DNA of 62,443 bases, filler included, from a bacterium (GTDB lineage Bacteria > UBA9089 > CG2-30-40-21 > SBAY01): the NCBI GenBank assembly GCA_040757115.1. It is 6 parts of 6 records of this genome, joined end to end, with 100 filler letters (N's around TTAATTAATTAA, not from the genome) between each part and the next. Parts side by side here need not be neighbours in the genome. Positions count along the whole stretch, not along the records: positions 1 to 10,538 come from JBFLYA010000132.1; positions 10,639 to 21,078 come from JBFLYA010000133.1; positions 21,179 to 31,616 come from JBFLYA010000134.1; positions 31,717 to 42,129 come from JBFLYA010000135.1; positions 42,230 to 52,317 come from JBFLYA010000136.1; 1 more part is not named here. One strand, given 5' to 3'. Under the pieces are notes generated by a model. It was not told where the DNA came from. It saw nothing but the letters and a program-made list of their open reading frames with translations, and did not search any database. The position numbers and the translations under genes were made by a program. Shown here piece after piece: positions 1 to 45,131 of the stretch; the stretch's first letter is position 1, and each line of letters begins with the position of its first letter.

Positions 1-122
1 ATAATTAATTTTTTAATTTTATTTTCAACCCCCACCCCCCAATCTTGGGGGCTTTAATAAGGAATTAGGATTGTGGCATTCAAAATGACCAACAATATAT
101 ATTATACGAGGACGATGAAAAT
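1..122. repeat. 122-bp sequence identical to 21183-21304 (both at or near a contig start)
   Basis: Direct comparison: ATAATTAATTTTTTAA...GAGGACGATGAAAAT is identical at both sites. Confidence 0.9.
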
Positions 123-363
123 AGTAGAGGGTAGAGAGAGAAAGAAGAGGCTTGTCTTTCCTTACTTTCTACTTTCTACTCTCTACTTTCTACTTCCTTA
201 TTTTCAGGGGAAACGGACATGAGCCAAGGCTCACAAAGGGCAATGAAAATGGGAGAAGGACAACCCCCTAACCCCCTTTATTAAGGGGGAATATCTGTTC
301 TAAACCATAGGATACGAGTCTGTGGATACTATACTAATTCACTAATTCGCTATTTTCAGGAGG
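115..363 (+). mobile_element. Two tandem TGAAAAT...ATTTTCAGG cassettes with a hairpin linker; the right end supplies the AGGAGG RBS of the next gene
   Basis: Inverted TGAAAAT/ATTTTCA ends, CTACTTT heptamer arm, linker related to 30335-30390. Confidence 0.6.
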
Positions 364-367
364 AACG

Positions 368-2074
368 ATGATTTTATATAAACGGCTCATTAGATACCTC
401 ATTCCACATAAACTACACCTGTGTTTTGCCTTAATTTGTATGCTGATTGTGGCAATTACTACCCTTGCCTTACCCTGGTTTATCAAGGTTGTCCTTGCTA
501 ATGCCTTATCCCAACAAAATGTTGTTCAATTAAACCTGACAATGTGCGCCGCACTTGGGACGGTTGTTATCTGGACATTAGCTCAGTATGGACAGGACTT
601 TCTAATGAGTTATGTTGGGCAAAAGGTAATTTTTACCCTTCGCCAGACCATATTTGAACATCTTACCTTCCTCTCATTAAAATTCTACAAGGATAGACAT
701 ACAGGTGAAATAATATCTCGAATTATCAATGATGTCGCTTTATTAGAGAACTTCATTATTTTTGGTGTCGTAAATATGCTCAAAGAACCTTTAGTTTTAT
801 TAGGAGCGGTTTGTGTTGCATTTTATCTTAATTGGCAGTTAGCACTTCTGTCCCTGATTGTTACGCCTTTTATTGCCCTTTCTATCTTTATCCTTGGCCG
901 AAAGATGAAGAAAATAAGCATTAGAATTCAAAATAGAATTGCAGAAGTAACCACTGGCTTGCAAGAGTTCATTTCTGGTATTCATGTTGTCAAGGTCTTT
1001 GCGATGGAATTTTATGAGCAACAACGGTTTAATGAGATAAACAAAAGATATTTTAATACATTTCTCAAAGGGGTAAAAATTACTGCGGCGGCGACTCCCC
1101 TGGTGCATTTTTTCAGCACGACAGGGACGATTGTAGTTATTTGGTTTGGTGCATATCAGGTTCTTACCGGAGCATTAACGGTTGCGGATTTAATTGCCTT
1201 TGGACTTTATTTAGCCACAATGTCTTCCCCAATTAAGAAATTGACCCAGGTAGTTTTAGTCATCCAACGAGCAATGGCCGCCTGCGAACGCATATTTGAG
1301 GTCGTCGATACGGAAATTCAGATGGCAGAATCTCCTCAAGCAAGAGAATTACCTGTGATTGTCGGTAAGGTAGAATTTGAAAATGTCTTTTTTAGATATG
1401 AGGATGAATTGGTCTTAAACGGCATTAATTTACAGGTTAATCCGGGTGAGGTATTGGCGATTGTCGGTCCTTCTGGAAATGGGAAAACAACTATTATTAA
1501 CCTCATCTCAAGACTTTATGACCCTAATTCTGGCAGGGTAATGATAGATGGTTATGATGTTAAATTGGTTAAAACAGATAGTCTCCGTCAGCAAATAGGT
1601 GTTGTGCCACAAGAGATTATTTTATTCAGTGGTAGTGTGAAAGAAAATATTGCTTATGGCAAGATTGATGCGAGTTTTGATGAGATAGTTGAAGCGGCTA
1701 AAGTGGCTAATGCCCATGAGTTTATTACTCGCCTGCCAGATGGCTATGATACTCAAATAGGTGAGCAGGGGGTAAAACTTTCGGGTGGTCAACGACAACG
1801 ATTAGCAATTGCCCGAGCGATTATTCGTCAACCAAAAATATTAATTTTAGATGAGGCAACATCAGCATTAGATTCTGAATCCGAAACACTAATCCAGGCA
1901 TCATTATCCGAAATTATGAAGCACCAGACAACTATTGTCGTTGCCCACCGCCTATCAACCGTCATAAATGCCAATAAAATTGCTGTGGTAGATAAAGGTA
2001 AAATAATCGAATTAGGCACACATCATGAACTTTTAAAACAGGGAGGACTTTATAGTAAACTTTATGATGTGTAA
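368..2074 (+). CDS. ABC transporter permease/ATP-binding protein, MsbA-like
   Basis: N-terminal TM domain, Walker A GPSGNGKT, LSGGQRQR signature, ILILDEATSALD. Confidence 0.9.
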   Translation: MILYKRLIRYLIPHKLHLCFALICMLIVAITTLALPWFIKVVLANALSQQNVVQLNLTMCAALGTVVIWTLAQYGQDFLMSYVGQKVIFTLRQTIFEHLTFLSLKFYKDRHTGEIISRIINDVALLENFIIFGVVNMLKEPLVLLGAVCVAFYLNWQLALLSLIVTPFIALSIFILGRKMKKISIRIQNRIAEVTTGLQEFISGIHVVKVFAMEFYEQQRFNEINKRYFNTFLKGVKITAAATPLVHFFSTTGTIVVIWFGAYQVLTGALTVADLIAFGLYLATMSSPIKKLTQVVLVIQRAMAACERIFEVVDTEIQMAESPQARELPVIVGKVEFENVFFRYEDELVLNGINLQVNPGEVLAIVGPSGNGKTTIINLISRLYDPNSGRVMIDGYDVKLVKTDSLRQQIGVVPQEIILFSGSVKENIAYGKIDASFDEIVEAAKVANAHEFITRLPDGYDTQIGEQGVKLSGGQRQRLAIARAIIRQPKILILDEATSALDSESETLIQASLSEIMKHQTTIVVAHRLSTVINANKIAVVDKGKIIELGTHHELLKQGGLYSKLYDV

Positions 2075-2132
2075 CAAGATGAAATTTTAGTTGACTAAAG
2101 AGTGAAAATATAGTACAATTAAGGTTGATAAA

Positions 2133-43253: not shown

Positions 43254-43490
43254 GTAAGCGTTCAGGTGGTGTAACAAAAGGAGATGTGGAGATTAAGGAG
43301 ATAGGGAGATATTATAAAAAATTGAAAATTAATAGAAACTAATAGAAATTTATGGAAATTTGTTGTTTTCCACAATCAATTTCTACCTATTTCTATAAAT
43401 TTCAATCTATATTCTATTATCTTATCTCCATATCACTCTTATCTCCTTATCCCCTTTCTTACACTTTTGATATATAGCCTGAACGGTTAC
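43254..43490. mobile_element. GTAA-shell element, inverted copy of 4328-4564
   Basis: GTAAGCGTTCAGG / CCTGAACGGTTAC; the end overlaps the stop codon of the 43487-44848 gene. Confidence 0.82.
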
Positions 43491-44848
43491 TTACTTACAA
43501 ATACATAACATACCCAACCAATCGTTCCATCTGGTAGCAAAACCTTATAATACCATTTCGAATCATCTATTAACATAAGTTTTGTTCCTTTATGGACGGT
43601 GGTTATCTTATCATAAGTAGCACCGGGACCTGACCAGATATCTACCTCATCCATCAGCACGATAACCTGCTTCTTTGGAATAACAGGTTCTGGAGGTGTT
43701 TTTCCTGGTAGTTTGACTTCAGGTAATAACTCAGGTGGTTTTACAGGCACAATCTCTTTTGGTTTTTCAGGAATAATCTCTTTGGGTTTAACTTCAGGTT
43801 TTATCTCAGGAACAATCTCTGGTATAGGAGCAGGTTTGCCCTCTTTTACCTCTGGTTTTTCTTCAGGAATAACTACTGGTGCTGGAACCGGTGGAGTTAT
43901 CACTTCTTCTGGTATCTCCATCGGAATTAGCTTCATTACAAATGCAATACAGTGTGTATCTCCTAAATCTCCATAAGGCACATAGGCATAGTCTAAGAAA
44001 TATGTATTACCCAATCCTAACCCAAATCCACCGGTGATGCCAACAGGTGCACTTTTATATAAATCTAATTTCTGGTCTTTGGTAAACCATCTATATCCCA
44101 TTCGTAAGGCAAGGATATTACCAATTTTTGACTCGACGCCAAGACAAATTAATGGGTCATTATCAATTGCCTTATTAACATCCAGGGCTAATGTCAAACC
44201 TTTATTCTGGTATGATAGACCTGTTTTAAAATTTAGCGGTAAGGGGAATCCGTCATTGACAAATTTTATCTTTGTGCCTATATTTTGCACAACAAATCCC
44301 CAATTTAAGAATTTCGTAGGTTTATATATCAGTCCAATATCCCCAGCAACACCCATAGCTGAGACATCGGCAATCTTCTGTTGAATATATTTTAAATTGG
44401 CGCCAAGCGATAAGTTCTCTTTTAATGCTTGAGCAAAAGATACAGCAACTCCCGCATCTTCTGCCTTAAAAGTGCCAACAACTGTTTTATCCTTTTTAAT
44501 TTCCTGTATCTTCCCTTCGTCCAGGTAAATTATCGAAACACCTAATGCCCCTTTATCCATCGGTTGCAAATATCCTAAATAACCACCATTAATCCCTTCA
44601 AACCAGTTTTTATGGATAGCAGTAAGTTGAAATTCTTTTACCCGGGCTAAGCCGGCTGGATTCCAGTAAGCGGCATTAATGTCATCGGCTATTGAACAAA
44701 ATGCCTCACCCATTGCCGCTGGCCGCGCTCCAATACCCAATTTTAAGAAATTAGCCGCGGTTGCCCCTGGTTTCTTAGTCTCGCCATAAACCACTGTTGA
44801 CTGAATAATGCAAATACATAAAATTAATAATTTAAACCTTTTCATCAT
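43487..44848 (-). CDS. PorV/PorQ-like outer-membrane beta-barrel with Pro/Glu/Lys-rich linker and C-terminal SH3-like domain
   Basis: FLKLGIGARPAAMGEAF...YWNPAGLA, DYAYVPYGDLG, GPG.TY...W..V....GWV. Confidence 0.78.
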   Translation of the reverse strand: MMKRFKLLILCICIIQSTVVYGETKKPGATAANFLKLGIGARPAAMGEAFCSIADDINAAYWNPAGLARVKEFQLTAIHKNWFEGINGGYLGYLQPMDKGALGVSIIYLDEGKIQEIKKDKTVVGTFKAEDAGVAVSFAQALKENLSLGANLKYIQQKIADVSAMGVAGDIGLIYKPTKFLNWGFVVQNIGTKIKFVNDGFPLPLNFKTGLSYQNKGLTLALDVNKAIDNDPLICLGVESKIGNILALRMGYRWFTKDQKLDLYKSAPVGITGGFGLGLGNTYFLDYAYVPYGDLGDTHCIAFVMKLIPMEIPEEVITPPVPAPVVIPEEKPEVKEGKPAPIPEIVPEIKPEVKPKEIIPEKPKEIVPVKPPELLPEVKLPGKTPPEPVIPKKQVIVLMDEVDIWSGPGATYDKITTVHKGTKLMLIDDSKWYYKVLLPDGTIGWVCYVFVSK

Positions 44849-44886
44849 CGTCTTACCTCTTTACTTAATCTCTATTGCCTTCACCT

Positions 44887-45117
44887 CACCACGGAGACAC
44901 AGAGGCACTGAGAACAACCCCCTAACCCCCTTTATTAAGGGGGAATAAACAACGGAAAGGCACGAAAGATGCGAAAAATAAAGGATGTCTTTTTCGTGTT
45001 TTTCGTTGTTGTATCCCAAAATTCAAATGTGATAAACTTCTACTGCTACCCCAATTATCTGTTCTGTAAGCTGCTTTTTCTAAAATCATTCTCCGTGTTT
45101 CTGTGTCTCTGTGGTGA
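44887..45117. repeat. CACCACGGAGACACAGA inverted-arm element containing a REP copy
   Basis: CACCACGGAGACACAGA / TCTGTGTCTCTGTGGTG. Confidence 0.65.
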
Positions 45118-45131
45118 TAACTCTTTCCTCC

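Follow-up and report, generated by a model that had tools for sequence, protein, structure and literature searches.

Intergenic elements of the window

The window analysed here is a stretch of 62,443 nucleotides from an uncultivated groundwater bacterium. It is built of six draft contigs of 10.0-10.5 kb with N linkers of 100 nt at 10539, 21079, 31617, 42130 and 52318; positions 1-45118 therefore span several joined contigs, not one genomic stretch. Its intergenic gaps hold inverted-repeat shells that enclose facing tandem arms (Table 1), as a sequence-only reading of this DNA had described, and motif counts and folding bore this out. The shell motif GTAACNRTTCA occurred 14 times vs 0.20 expected (100 shuffles, largest 2), and GGAGATA-type arms, in a pattern allowing up to two mismatches, 12 times vs 0.29 expected. 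GGTTCTGCAAAA with up to two mismatches occurred 20 times vs 8.25 expected (largest shuffle 19); its matches with 0-1 mismatch fall at the termini of four or five elements. The ends of the GTAA elements read GTAAGCGTTCAG, GTAACTGTTCAGCC and GTAACCGTTCA. Each of the eight arm hairpins that were folded scored better than all 200 shuffles (z -4.1 to -10.7). One arm type does occur in two settings: GGAGATA arms lie in the GTAA shell at 4328-4564 and 43254-43490, and behind AATTTCGGTGGTGTCT at 10165.

Table 1. Shells, hairpins and gene remnants in the window
Position	Strand	Feature	Further data
115..215	+	Hairpin, 7-nt CTACTTT-type arms, bounded by TGAAAAT and ATTTTCAGG	Fold z -4.1, 0/200 shuffles as good
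2669..2962	+	GTAA-shell miniature transposon, 294 bp, CGCAGAG arms and GxxExxY remnant	Arms 41 nt, 93% complementary
4328..4564	+	GTAA-shell miniature transposon, outer GGAGATA arms (8 nt), inner ATAGAAAT arms, without gene	
8197..8633	+	TAGGGTTCTGCAAAA-shell element, AAATATC arms (7 nt), nested GTAA element 8321-8496	Flanking duplication TGGTAAAT
9152..9388	+	GTAA-shell element, CGCAGAG arms, CGAAAAA repeats	
10163..10348	+	AATTTCGG-bounded element, GGAGATA arms (10225-10331)	
10349..10538	+	GTGCTCTGTCGC-shell element, left part, inserted at TA; AATTCCAA arms (7 nt)	Truncated by contig end
11946..12156	+	GTAA-shell element, CAGAG-type arms	
13059..13294	+	GTAA-shell element, family of 9152-9388, inverse orientation	8-bp duplication AAAGTAAG
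13583..13968	+	TAGGGTTCTGCAAAA-shell element, nested TATAGTT hairpin (13766-13868)	Flanking duplication CAACCTCAA(AA); fold z -6.3
17538..17902	+	TAGGGTTCTGCAAAA-shell element, nested GTTGATA hairpin (17731-17810)	Flanking duplication ATAATCTCATTG; fold z -6.7
22946..23012	+	TGGTAAC hairpin (7 nt), without shell	Fold z -5.1
24170..24612	+	TAGGGTTCTGCAAAA-shell element, nested GGGGCGGTTC shell (24273-24458), GAAATTG arms	
26130..26185	+	GTAA element, solo left end	
26551..26664	+	TGGTAAC hairpin (7 nt), two small EamA-like genes on either side	Fold z -10.7
28903..29060	+	GTAA-shell miniature transposon, 158 bp	8-bp duplication AATTGATT; clean empty site in G001 C215
29090..29152	+	Hairpin, AAGCGGATT arms (9 nt)	Identical arms around intact GxxExxY gene, G001 C1
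30262..30480	-	TGAAAAT...ATTTTCAGG hairpin units, two in tandem, ahead of YceG-like gene	G001 sequence differs here
31155..31588	-	Split DUF559 gene within perfect 24-nt inverted repeats of GGGGGTTA units	
42003..42129	+	GTAA left end, GTAGGAAA arms (8 nt)	Truncated by contig end
42230..42320	+	TAGGGTTCTGCAAAA-shell element, right half	At contig start
43061..43247	+	CGCAGAG-armed element, GTAA right end	
43254..43490	+	GTAA-shell GGAGATA element, family of 4328-4564	
44886..45117	+	CACAGAG-armed element, without GTAA ends	Arms 29 nt, 86% complementary

No transposase family was detected among the window's 43 ORFs or its 134 stop-to-stop gap frames, in agreement with that reading. Of the decayed cargo genes that it had proposed, two families were recovered: a GxxExxY remnant at 2668-2883 (PDDEXK_3, E 1.6e-20, profile positions 52-108 of 117) and a split DUF559 remnant on the minus strand at 31158-31574. 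The third, a four-helix-bundle (4HB) remnant, was not, either by Pfam in the 134 gap frames or by our own HMM, whose best E across 1654 window frames was 2.4. The window comes nearest to 4HB cargo at 10507-10538, where the contig end truncates an arm. In contigs C701 and C502 of the sister genome G001, the counterpart of this arm and the sequence upstream of it lead to intact 4HB genes.

Comparison with a close strain

G001 is an independent assembly of a close strain (770 contigs, 5% contamination) with colinear genes, in which the window's elements recur. In its orthologous spacers we found other elements, arms of other length, a loop in inverse orientation and clean empty sites, so the presence/absence variation expected from the sequence-only reading was found, together with replacement. 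The 2669-2962 element has at least 11 copies in G001 (94-98% identity), and its orthologous site there holds 52 bp of unrelated sequence. More than 30 G001 copies (92-100% identity) match the 4328-4564 element; its counterpart with an intact gene comes from another phylum (G026:C361). The spacer of the 8197-8633 element is occupied in G001 by a different GTAA element, and the G001 orthologue of 9152-9388 is without the inner 147 bp (9216-9362). The last codons and stop of a methyltransferase gene come from the 10163-10348 element; the G001 alignment ends at 10162, where a GTAA element stands in G001. A sister copy of the GTGCTCTGTCGC-shell element at 10349-10538 is flanked by a TA duplication.

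Shell-less hairpins also differed between the strains, without target duplication. The hairpin at 22946-23012, which gives an M23 peptidase gene a new ribosome-binding site and start codon, is missing from G001 (21 nt there vs 94 nt here). The loop of the 26551-26664 hairpin is inverted in G001 (38/40 identical as reverse complement), and by motif counts its right arm has 28 units there vs 5 here. This polymorphism is not explained by trans-mobilised shells.

A small gene between facing arms

The core unit is a cassette of the 23S rRNA intervening-sequence (IVS) design, a small gene between facing periodic arms. The gene encodes a 4HB IVS/S23p protein or a GxxExxY PD-(D/E)XK nuclease-like protein, more rarely DUF559. 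Facing arms were found around every intact GxxExxY and 4HB gene examined in G001, and likewise across the phylum. Complementarity between a cassette's own upstream and downstream arms exceeded the 99th percentile of mismatched pairs in 31/44 GxxExxY and 31/41 4HB cassettes, counts in which related genomes are not independent. A 7-nt arm period was measured in 30 of 36 4HB cassettes and in none of 40 GxxExxY cassettes, which had periods of 8 nt (15), 9 nt (18), 10 nt (5) or other (2).

The wider survey of tandem arrays covered an unbiased sample of 727 kb. Facing complementary arrays made up 98 of 1034 neighbouring arrays vs 293 of 20000 random pairs; direct pairs numbered only 27. Arm midpoints fell inside ORFs in only 20 of 196 cases, though ORFs are 74% of bases. 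The gap between facing arms was at most 250 nt in 83 of the 98 pairs, too short for a gene; about nine in ten cassette copies are gene-less hairpins. Where cargo was identifiable in this sample, it matched the period in 10/10 cases (3/3 and 7/7). The sequence-only reading had tied each cargo family to an arm motif of its own. That link holds for the period (7 nt vs 8-10 nt) but not for a single word per family, since each protein family has a dozen or more words, which track gene lineages and not whole families.

Both kinds of gene are co-oriented with their neighbours (GxxExxY, 30/33 upstream and 31/35 downstream; 4HB, 26/27 and 27/29). Arm mismatches showed no bias toward G-U over A-C (160 vs 134), and thus gave no support for selection on a sense-strand RNA stem. 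The design also occurs in other phyla, including an Azospirillum 23S intervening sequence. Outside the phylum, clear facing arms were seen at 6 of 8 4HB loci and at only 3 of 6 GxxExxY loci on plasmids.

Miniature-transposon shells

Among 161 GTAA elements, an 8-bp duplication was perfect in 52 and matched at 7 of 8 positions in 13; a shifted control gave 0/161. Its terminal repeat and 8-bp duplication mark the GTAA shell as a miniature transposon of the IS66/ISBst12 type. IS66 terminal repeats begin GTAAGCG and make 8-bp duplications (excerpt of PMC11946415), and for ISDge4 of the ISBst12 group the end reads GTAACTGCTCAGCA, again with an 8-bp duplication (excerpt of PMC12898284). G001 carries IS66-family transposase fragments on short contigs, with ends GTAATTGTTTACC and GTAACTGCTCATC. 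We recovered no complete IS66/ISBst12 element whose ends match, and GTAA..TTCA ends were not found on IS66 copies from other genomes. Of five other genomes in which the GTAA-CAGAG element is abundant, two gave no IS66 transposase match, a weak result in draft MAGs. The end-arm junction of GTAA elements is conserved over many phyla.

The remaining shells have TA or 9-12-bp duplications; an IS630-type copy in G001 had ends unlike those of the TA-duplicating shell. The GTAA shell surrounds 17 of 36 hairpins with 8-9-nt arms vs 0 of 56 with 7-nt arms, which contradicts the earlier view of freely interchangeable shells. In G001 C190, a 563-bp GTAA element with a perfect duplication holds an intact GxxExxY gene. 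Recognisable GTAA ends accompany only 5 of the 17 intact GxxExxY genes of G001; the shell is therefore dispensable for the cassette. The proposal of a modular, selfish, nested system was upheld, the shells proving to be the terminal inverted repeats of miniature transposons that duplicate their target. Its author had named, as evidence against it, a catalogued IS or MITE for every shell and arms unrelated to cargo; a catalogued type was found for the GTAA shell (IS66/ISBst12), and the arm-cargo link persists by period.

A probable two-layer system of selfish DNA and the alternatives

What was observed directly is the anatomy of the elements, how many copies they have, their target duplications, their polymorphism between strains and the correspondence of arm period with cargo. 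These features are probably the product of two stacked layers of selfish DNA in intergenic spacers, hairpin cassettes and miniature transposons moved in trans. The first layer would be a passenger cassette, a small gene bracketed by facing arrays of a short repeated word, which could therefore fold as a long hairpin. Cassettes would settle co-oriented between host genes, and most would shed the gene and persist as bare hairpins; slippage may alter arm length, and recombination between arms may flip the loop. The second layer would consist of ordinary miniature transposons mobilised in trans. The GTAA shell, with IS66/ISBst12-type ends and 8-bp duplications, would carry GxxExxY-type cassettes in the manner of a mobile insertion cassette, 7-nt hairpins would sit in the other shells, those with a TA or a 9-12-bp duplication, and elements would insert inside one another. 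We infer the transposase assigned to each shell and the route by which shell-less hairpins spread; the protein encoded in the cassette, or else RNase III, may bind or process the arms.

A possible but doubtful alternative is an autonomous, RAYT/REPIN-like cassette, in which the GxxExxY nuclease or pentameric 4HB protein recognises its own arms and spreads or maintains matching gene-less hairpins, with shells as occasional vehicles. The specificity of arm period for gene family (7 nt vs 8-10 nt), the arm words that track protein lineages and the strain polymorphism of shell-less hairpins are consistent with it, although co-divergence of gene and arms after duplication predicts the same pattern without recognition. 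Most abundant hairpin families have a same-armed intact gene in G001 (e.g. TGGTAAC, GTGAATG, TAGTTGA, AATTCCAA, GGAGAAAT and CGCAGAG); however, none of the 17 intact GxxExxY genes of G001 is cognate to the most abundant family, GGAGATA (>30 copies). The unit TTCACC-RCAGAG, outermost in the arms, is retained across phyla, and both proteins are well conserved (GxxExxY, 55-59% identity between this phylum and Bacteroidota). Yet no catalytic domain is known in the 4HB protein, whose nearest solved relative is the uncharacterised pentamer 2GSC, and neither a duplication, a fixed target nor any other insertion signature was found for shell-less hairpins; their junctions resemble replacements.

It is improbable that the hairpins belong to the host, as terminators, RNase III sites, mRNA stabilisers or quadruplex-forming repeats, and that they arose in place by slippage and are merely tolerated by the small genes. 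Near-identical copies at dozens of unrelated loci, target duplications with clean empty sites, different elements in orthologous spacers of two close strains and the same non-coding ends in many phyla argue against such an origin, while strong folding, the position between co-oriented genes and the Shine-Dalgarno-like AGGAG that several hairpins provide right before host starts at 368, 21386 and 30310 would suit it; excerpts of Rehm 2015 and MacGregor 2015 present similar heptamer arrays as structural repeats. We give very little credence to the idea that draft assembly or binning created the pattern, through collapsed repeats, chimeric contigs or a mixture of DNA from several organisms. The window is indeed a chain of short contigs ending in repeats, and G001 has the contig number and contamination given above, but elements lie inside contigs with housekeeping genes on both sides, an independent assembly with colinear genes shows them again, and finished plasmids of cultured bacteria carry the same designs.

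Relation to known systems

No unified description of the proposed two-layer system was found in the literature searched, as the sequence-only reading had supposed. A close parallel to the cassette is the 23S rRNA IVS with ORF of Coxiella burnetii and Leptospira, in which a small 4HB S23p/IVP gene lies between stem-forming inverted repeats; the Coxiella IVS has tandem GACAGAT heptamers in variable number upstream of the ORF, and IVS are regarded as selfish, their way of moving being unknown (excerpt of PMC4990558). An Azospirillum 23S copy has the same facing heptamer arms. In contrast to IVS in rRNA, the present cassettes occupy spacers between protein-coding genes; their copies, mostly gene-less, number tens to hundreds, many of them packed within transposon ends, and a second, unrelated family (GxxExxY) shares the design with a longer period.

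The GTAA elements share with IS66/ISBst12 terminal repeats beginning GTAA (GTAAGCG..., GTAACTGCTCAGCA) and the 8-bp target duplication (excerpts of PMC11946415 and PMC12898284). They differ in having no transposase, and in an interior that is a GxxExxY cassette or remnant and not a deleted IS. Mobile insertion cassettes (MICs) consist of IS ends around passenger genes. The 563-bp element of G001 C190 resembles them in its IS-type inverted repeats around a non-transposase gene and its target duplication; here, however, what rides inside is a hairpin cassette that has inverted arms of its own, and gene-less copies far outnumber gene-bearing ones. REP/REPIN and RAYT systems have a small gene between inverted copies of a repeat that is scattered genome-wide as gene-less hairpins. 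Both of these traits recur here, but the genes are not Y1 transposases, and the arms, instead of being single palindromes, repeat 7-10-nt words in tandem, with many word families per genome.

The STRR of cyanobacteria are intergenic heptamer repeats. Excerpts of two papers describe GGGAATC of Xanthomonas, with 70-75 convergent heptamer-array pairs, and GGGGAYT of Nostoc (PMC4692102), and TAACTGA of Beggiatoaceae and cyanobacteria (PMC4679880). Like those repeats, the 7-nt words of the arms described here form arrays that are enriched between co-oriented genes and variable in copy number. A term search of the available text of PMC4692102 and PMC4679880 returned no 4HB, XCC0516 or intervening-sequence genes, and that text does not treat the repeats as parts of cassettes or transposons. 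The present analysis adds the transposon packaging of cassettes and the comparison of strains.

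Repeat elements of the window

The intergenic gaps of the window were crowded with short-period tandem arrays and inverted repeats, and the shells and arms described in the sequence-only reading occurred far above chance. The shell motif GTAACNRTTCA had 14 matches (0.20 expected), the GGAGATA arm pattern 12 (0.29 expected), and GGTTCTGCAAAA with up to two mismatches 20 (8.25 expected). The ends of the GTAA shell had the form GTAA[CG][CT][GA]TTCA. When eight hairpins were folded, all eight scored better than every one of 200 shuffles (z -4.1 to -10.7). Decayed GxxExxY, DUF559 and four-helix-bundle (4HB) genes had been proposed as cargo. 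Pfam searches recovered a remnant of the first (PDDEXK_3, from gap frames) and a split gene of the second, flanked by perfect 24-nt inverted repeats; a 4HB remnant was found neither by Pfam in 134 gap frames nor by a custom HMM in 1654 frames. In agreement with the statement that the window has no transposase, no such family was detected among its 43 ORFs or the 134 gap frames.

The window consists of six draft contigs of 10.0-10.5 kb each (G+C ~35%), ordered by falling length, with linkers of 100 nt (TTAATTAATTAA between two runs of 44 N) at 10539-10638, 21079-21178, 31617-31716, 42130-42229 and 52318-52417; adjacent pieces are not genomic neighbours. Every contig end lay within or adjoining a repeat element; such elements break assemblies. 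Two contigs began with a common leader of ~120 nt (1-120 and 21179-21300) containing a CCCCCACCCCCC...GGGGG hairpin; both times the leader preceded an ABC-transporter ATPase gene, and differing hairpin inserts followed it. Host genes at 368, 21386 and 30310 (minus strand) started 5-8 nt past the element end ATTTTCAGGAG, and the element therefore provides a Shine-Dalgarno-like AGGAG.

Besides housekeeping genes, the window encoded cargo of type IX secretion and a heterodisulfide-reductase-like cluster. A cyanobacterial source, to which the heptamers had pointed, was rejected on account of these type IX secretion and heterodisulfide-reductase-like genes. Toxin-antitoxin-like small genes lay between the heterodisulfide-reductase-like genes at 32457-36243 (DUF4258 with an MqsA-like partner, AbiEii-like, HicB-like, and UPF0175 with a PIN/DUF3368 partner). 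Two genes at 18406-21078 had the CTD10 domain of ABC-three-component systems, one of them also DUF2326; this possible defence locus is truncated where the contig stops. Two giant secreted proteins contained near-perfect tandem repeats, of 255 bp (4.3 copies, 46753-47843) and of 369 bp (3.9 copies, 55322-56775); one of the two proteins carried a type IX secretion CHU_C signal.

Cassettes with intact genes in the sister genome

The nearest genome, G001 (770 contigs, 4.7 Mb), had 53% of sampled 31-mers in common with the window; its phylum is represented by only 24 species genomes. Genome-scale work used 60 of its 770 contigs, and an unbiased sample of 727 kb was formed from the window and G001 contigs C1-C60. 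A search for full-length copies with intact cargo was successful: G001 contained 71 PDDEXK_3 matches (17 full length), 39 matches to the 4HB IVS-protein family (~17 full length) and three DUF559 matches. Every intact cassette gene inspected lay between facing tandem arrays whose arm words, upstream and downstream, were reverse complements of each other; the word varied from paralogue to paralogue. The same design recurred in further genera and families within the phylum. In 31 of 44 GxxExxY and 31 of 41 4HB cassettes, the two arms were more complementary to each other than 99% of mismatched pairs.

Arm period differed between the two families, a pattern rather than a formal test because related genomes are not independent: it was 7 nt in 30 of 36 measured 4HB cassettes (the others 9, 9, 4, 11, 6 and 8; five too short), whereas none of 40 measured GxxExxY cassettes had 7 nt (8 nt in 15, 9 nt in 18, 10 nt in 5, and 12 nt and 4 nt once each; four too short). 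In the 727-kb sample, facing complementary pairs made up 98 of 1034 neighbouring arrays, as against 293 of 20000 random pairs; direct pairs numbered 27. The arms were intergenic, with 20 of 196 midpoints inside ORFs although ORFs covered 74% of bases. In 83 of the 98 facing pairs the gap was at most 250 nt, and these were therefore gene-less. Where cargo was identifiable in this sample, 7-nt arms went with 4HB (3/3) and 8-nt arms with GxxExxY genes or remnants (7/7). The proposal that each protein family travels with its own arm motif thus holds for the period (7 nt versus 8-10 nt) and fails for the word, which differs between paralogues.

Because period follows cargo, bare hairpins of the window could be assigned to gene types. 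TGGTAAC, TATAGTT/GTTGATA and AATTCCAA arms were of 4HB type, with intact counterparts on G001 contigs C185/C60, C79 and C502/C701, respectively. CGCAGAG arms were of GxxExxY type (intact counterparts C327/C563), and the closest G001 GxxExxY counterpart of GGAGATA arms was C55, with GGAGAA arms. Cassettes had the orientation of their neighbours (GxxExxY, 30/33 upstream and 31/35 downstream; 4HB, 26/27 and 27/29), and are therefore placed for host read-through transcription. A test for a sense-strand RNA stem gave no clear bias in arm mismatches (160 G-U, 134 A-C). No solved structural relative of GxxExxY was found by sequence search, and the name occurred in just 3 papers of the literature searched.

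A CRISPR reading of the arrays was rejected, as their units are of 7-10 nt, abutting and facing, whereas CRISPR arrays have direct repeats of 25-40 nt with unique spacers. Separately, at two G001 loci (C761 at ~31.9 kb, L102; C29 at ~8.0 kb, L100) 4HB cassettes occupied the spacer position between 25-nt CRISPR-like direct repeats GACCTGATGAATAAGGGATTGCGAC. Published surveys place members of the 4HB family near cas loci.

The GTAA shell resembles an IS66/ISBst12-type miniature transposon

Elements bounded by GTAA..TTCA ends were drawn from the window, G001, the phylum and other phyla. Among 161 non-redundant elements, the flanking 8-bp duplication was perfect in 52 and matched at 7 of 8 positions in 13; a shifted control gave 0/161. 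Element length was 111-650 bp, and near-identical shell copies in G001 numbered from eleven to more than 30. On G001 contig C190, a 563-bp GTAA element with a perfect duplication enclosed an intact GxxExxY gene. With IS-like GTAA ends, 8-bp duplications, short length, many copies and no transposase, the shell has the characters of a miniature transposon. Its ends are like those of IS66, whose terminal repeats begin GTAAGCG and which makes 8-bp duplications (excerpt of PMC11946415), and of ISDge4 of the single-ORF ISBst12 group, which has the end GTAACTGCTCAGCA and an 8-bp duplication (excerpt of PMC12898284).

Fragments of IS66-family transposases were present on two short G001 contigs (C698 and C113), and their ends, GTAATTGTTTACC and GTAACTGCTCATC, were similar, not identical, to those of the shell. 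No complete IS66/ISBst12 copy with ends identical to the GTAA shell was recovered from G001 or the other carrier genomes. An IS66 transposase match was absent from two of five other GTAA-carrier genomes, which are draft MAGs, and the IS66 copies fetched from other phyla lacked GTAA..TTCA ends. The shell surrounded 17 of 36 hairpins with 8-9-nt arms and none of 56 with 7-nt arms. GTAA is thus no universal carrier, and the free interchange of shells proposed earlier is contradicted. Of the two findings that were jointly to count against the modular selfish system, a match of each shell to a catalogued IS or MITE and the lack of any association of arms with cargo family, the first applies to the GTAA shell, which resembles IS66/ISBst12; the arms do associate with cargo.

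Other shells and nesting

The GTGCTCTGTCGC shell had a 13-nt terminal repeat and a TA duplication, the latter based on one complete copy, a single clean G001 insertion compared with the empty site at window 18066. Terminal inverted repeats with TA duplication are characters of IS630/Tc1-mariner-type elements, here in one copy; no full-length IS630 match to the shell was obtained, the ends of the IS630-type contig C696 of G001 being different. Another GTGCTCTGTCGC end was inserted at a TA within an AATTTCGG element. The TAGGGTTCTGCAAAA shell had 8-12-bp flanking duplications in three of five listed copies; a further copy, listed in the table, was also duplicated, and GTAA, GGGGCGGTTC and hairpin inserts were nested in this shell. 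A search for its transposase found none, and a comparison of six shell motifs with the ends of 12 transposase loci gave no match. A further shell, AGTGTCGTGTTGA, surrounded the TGGTAAC hairpin in G001; the window copy at 26551 had the same loop and no shell.

Turnover between strains

G001 contigs were colinear with the window genes at 90-99% identity; the spacers differed. Comparison with a related genome, proposed as a check for empty sites, revealed one clean empty site together with presence/absence and replacement of elements in orthologous spacers.

Coordinates of elements in the window and their state in G001
Position	Window	G001
2667-2962	spacer	unrelated spacer of 52 bp
2668-2883	PDDEXK_3 (GxxExxY) remnant	
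4277-4605	element	different element, insertion point a few bases apart
6637		extra element
8203-8628	element	different element, insertion point a few bases apart
10163	element adjoining stop codon	differs
10349	GTGCTCTGTCGC end within AATTTCGG element	
13583-13968	TAGGGTTCTGCAAAA-shell copy, duplication CAACCTCAA(AA)	
18066		extra element
22945-23038	hairpin (22946) replacing RBS and start codon of M23 peptidase gene	absent
26551	TGGTAAC hairpin, right arm of 5 units (motif counts)	right arm of 28 units (motif counts)
28903-29060	GTAA element, AATTGATT duplicated	clean empty site
31158-31574	split DUF559 gene	

Owing to the hairpin insertion, the N-terminus of the M23 peptidase differed from that of its G001 orthologue. 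The loop of the TGGTAAC hairpin was inverted between strains: 38 of 40 positions agreed when one copy was reverse-complemented, and 27 of 40 when both were read in one direction. This hairpin lies between two adjacent genes (26213-26551 and 26680-27030; 112 and 116 aa) that both match the same half of the EamA transporter domain. In two DNA runs, summed contig depth was 30-90 times greater over repeats. A read-run contig that joined the two sides of 28894-29061, with 8 shared letters, had a side of only 24 letters and a depth unlike that of unique regions; it was disregarded.

Cassettes and junctions in other phyla

Cross-phylum cassette loci were taken from finished plasmid records. Facing arms were clear at six of eight 4HB loci (two Nostoc, Riemerella, Stanieria, Gemmatirosa and Azospirillum), the Azospirillum cassette lying within a 23S rRNA gene; the Pseudanabaena arrays were on the same strand and those of Calothrix were weak. 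At GxxExxY loci, arms were clear in three of six (Bernardetia, Bacteroides finegoldii and Treponema) and partial in the others.

More than 125 stretches from many phyla, among the matches listed, contained a 19-nt junction formed by the GTAA end and the first arm unit. Our own arithmetic gives a chance expectation of ~35 in 596 Gb; the matches listed, however, were concentrated in particular genomes, and most extended into more CAGAG units; several cross-phylum matches had 8-bp duplications. An intact GxxExxY gene accompanied only one of 80 junction matches among those listed. A gene-bearing copy from Planctomycetota (G026:C361) had GGAGATA arms, and its non-coding left end was closely like that of the window GGAGATA element. 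Novel cargo downstream of cross-phylum GTAA-CAGAG ends was also considered and rejected: 34 ORFs gave one PDDEXK_3, seven other Pfam matches (PDZ, HhH-GPD, HEAT, cytidylyltransferase and others, resembling ordinary host genes) and 26 unmatched.

Proposed mechanism and comparison with known systems

GTAA elements transpose by 8-bp staggered target cuts, carrying cassettes or their remnants, and the arms grow, shrink and recombine. An ISBst12-type transposase would work in trans, and bare hairpins would arise mostly from gene loss between arms and then be copied along with the shells. The family-specific arm period suggests contact between each protein and the arms around its own gene. A wider scheme is, in our view, less likely than not: in it the pentameric 4HB protein would read 7-nt words, and the unrelated GxxExxY nuclease 8-10-nt words, around its own gene. 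Each gene with its arms would be a selfish unit able to recognise itself, which would seed hundreds of gene-less hairpins per genome and hitch in IS66-type miniature transposons across phyla. Both the rRNA intervening sequences (IVS) and the heptamer repeats STRR, GGGAATC and TAACTGA would have their origin in such units.

The 4HB and GxxExxY families have many members and no known function, and intergenic heptamer repeats have several descriptions, none with an origin. The full life cycle was seen in one genome: cassettes both intact and truncated, hairpins without a gene, units packaged by transposon ends that have clean target duplications, and elements that turn over from one close strain to the other. 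From the period-cargo rule follows a concrete hypothesis of what both proteins bind, and the 8-bp duplications provide an assayable transposition system. In host genes, the elements also alter ribosome-binding sites as well as start and stop codons.

The component parts are of known kinds: rRNA IVS, IS66-type miniature transposons, mobile insertion cassettes and intergenic heptamer repeats. In agreement with the statement that no unified description exists, the literature searched contained no paper uniting these parts or tying GxxExxY genes to periodic arms. rRNA IVS, which are cut by RNase III (excerpt of PMC4990558), occupy the tip of a 23S rRNA helix, whereas the window copies all lie between protein-coding genes. 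No counterpart of the S23p/4HB ORF of IVS was found in the window, and the ORF is present in G001 within like cassettes; the IVS stem of flanking inverted repeats is a feature of these cassettes as well. In REPIN/RAYT systems the repeats flank a Y1 (RAYT) transposase, whereas the genes flanked here are PDDEXK_3 and 23S_rRNA_IVP. What is new in relation to these systems is the transposon packaging with target-duplication statistics, the occurrence of the GTAA shell with 8-10-nt arms only, the strain-level turnover, loop inversion included, and the end-arm junction conserved across phyla.
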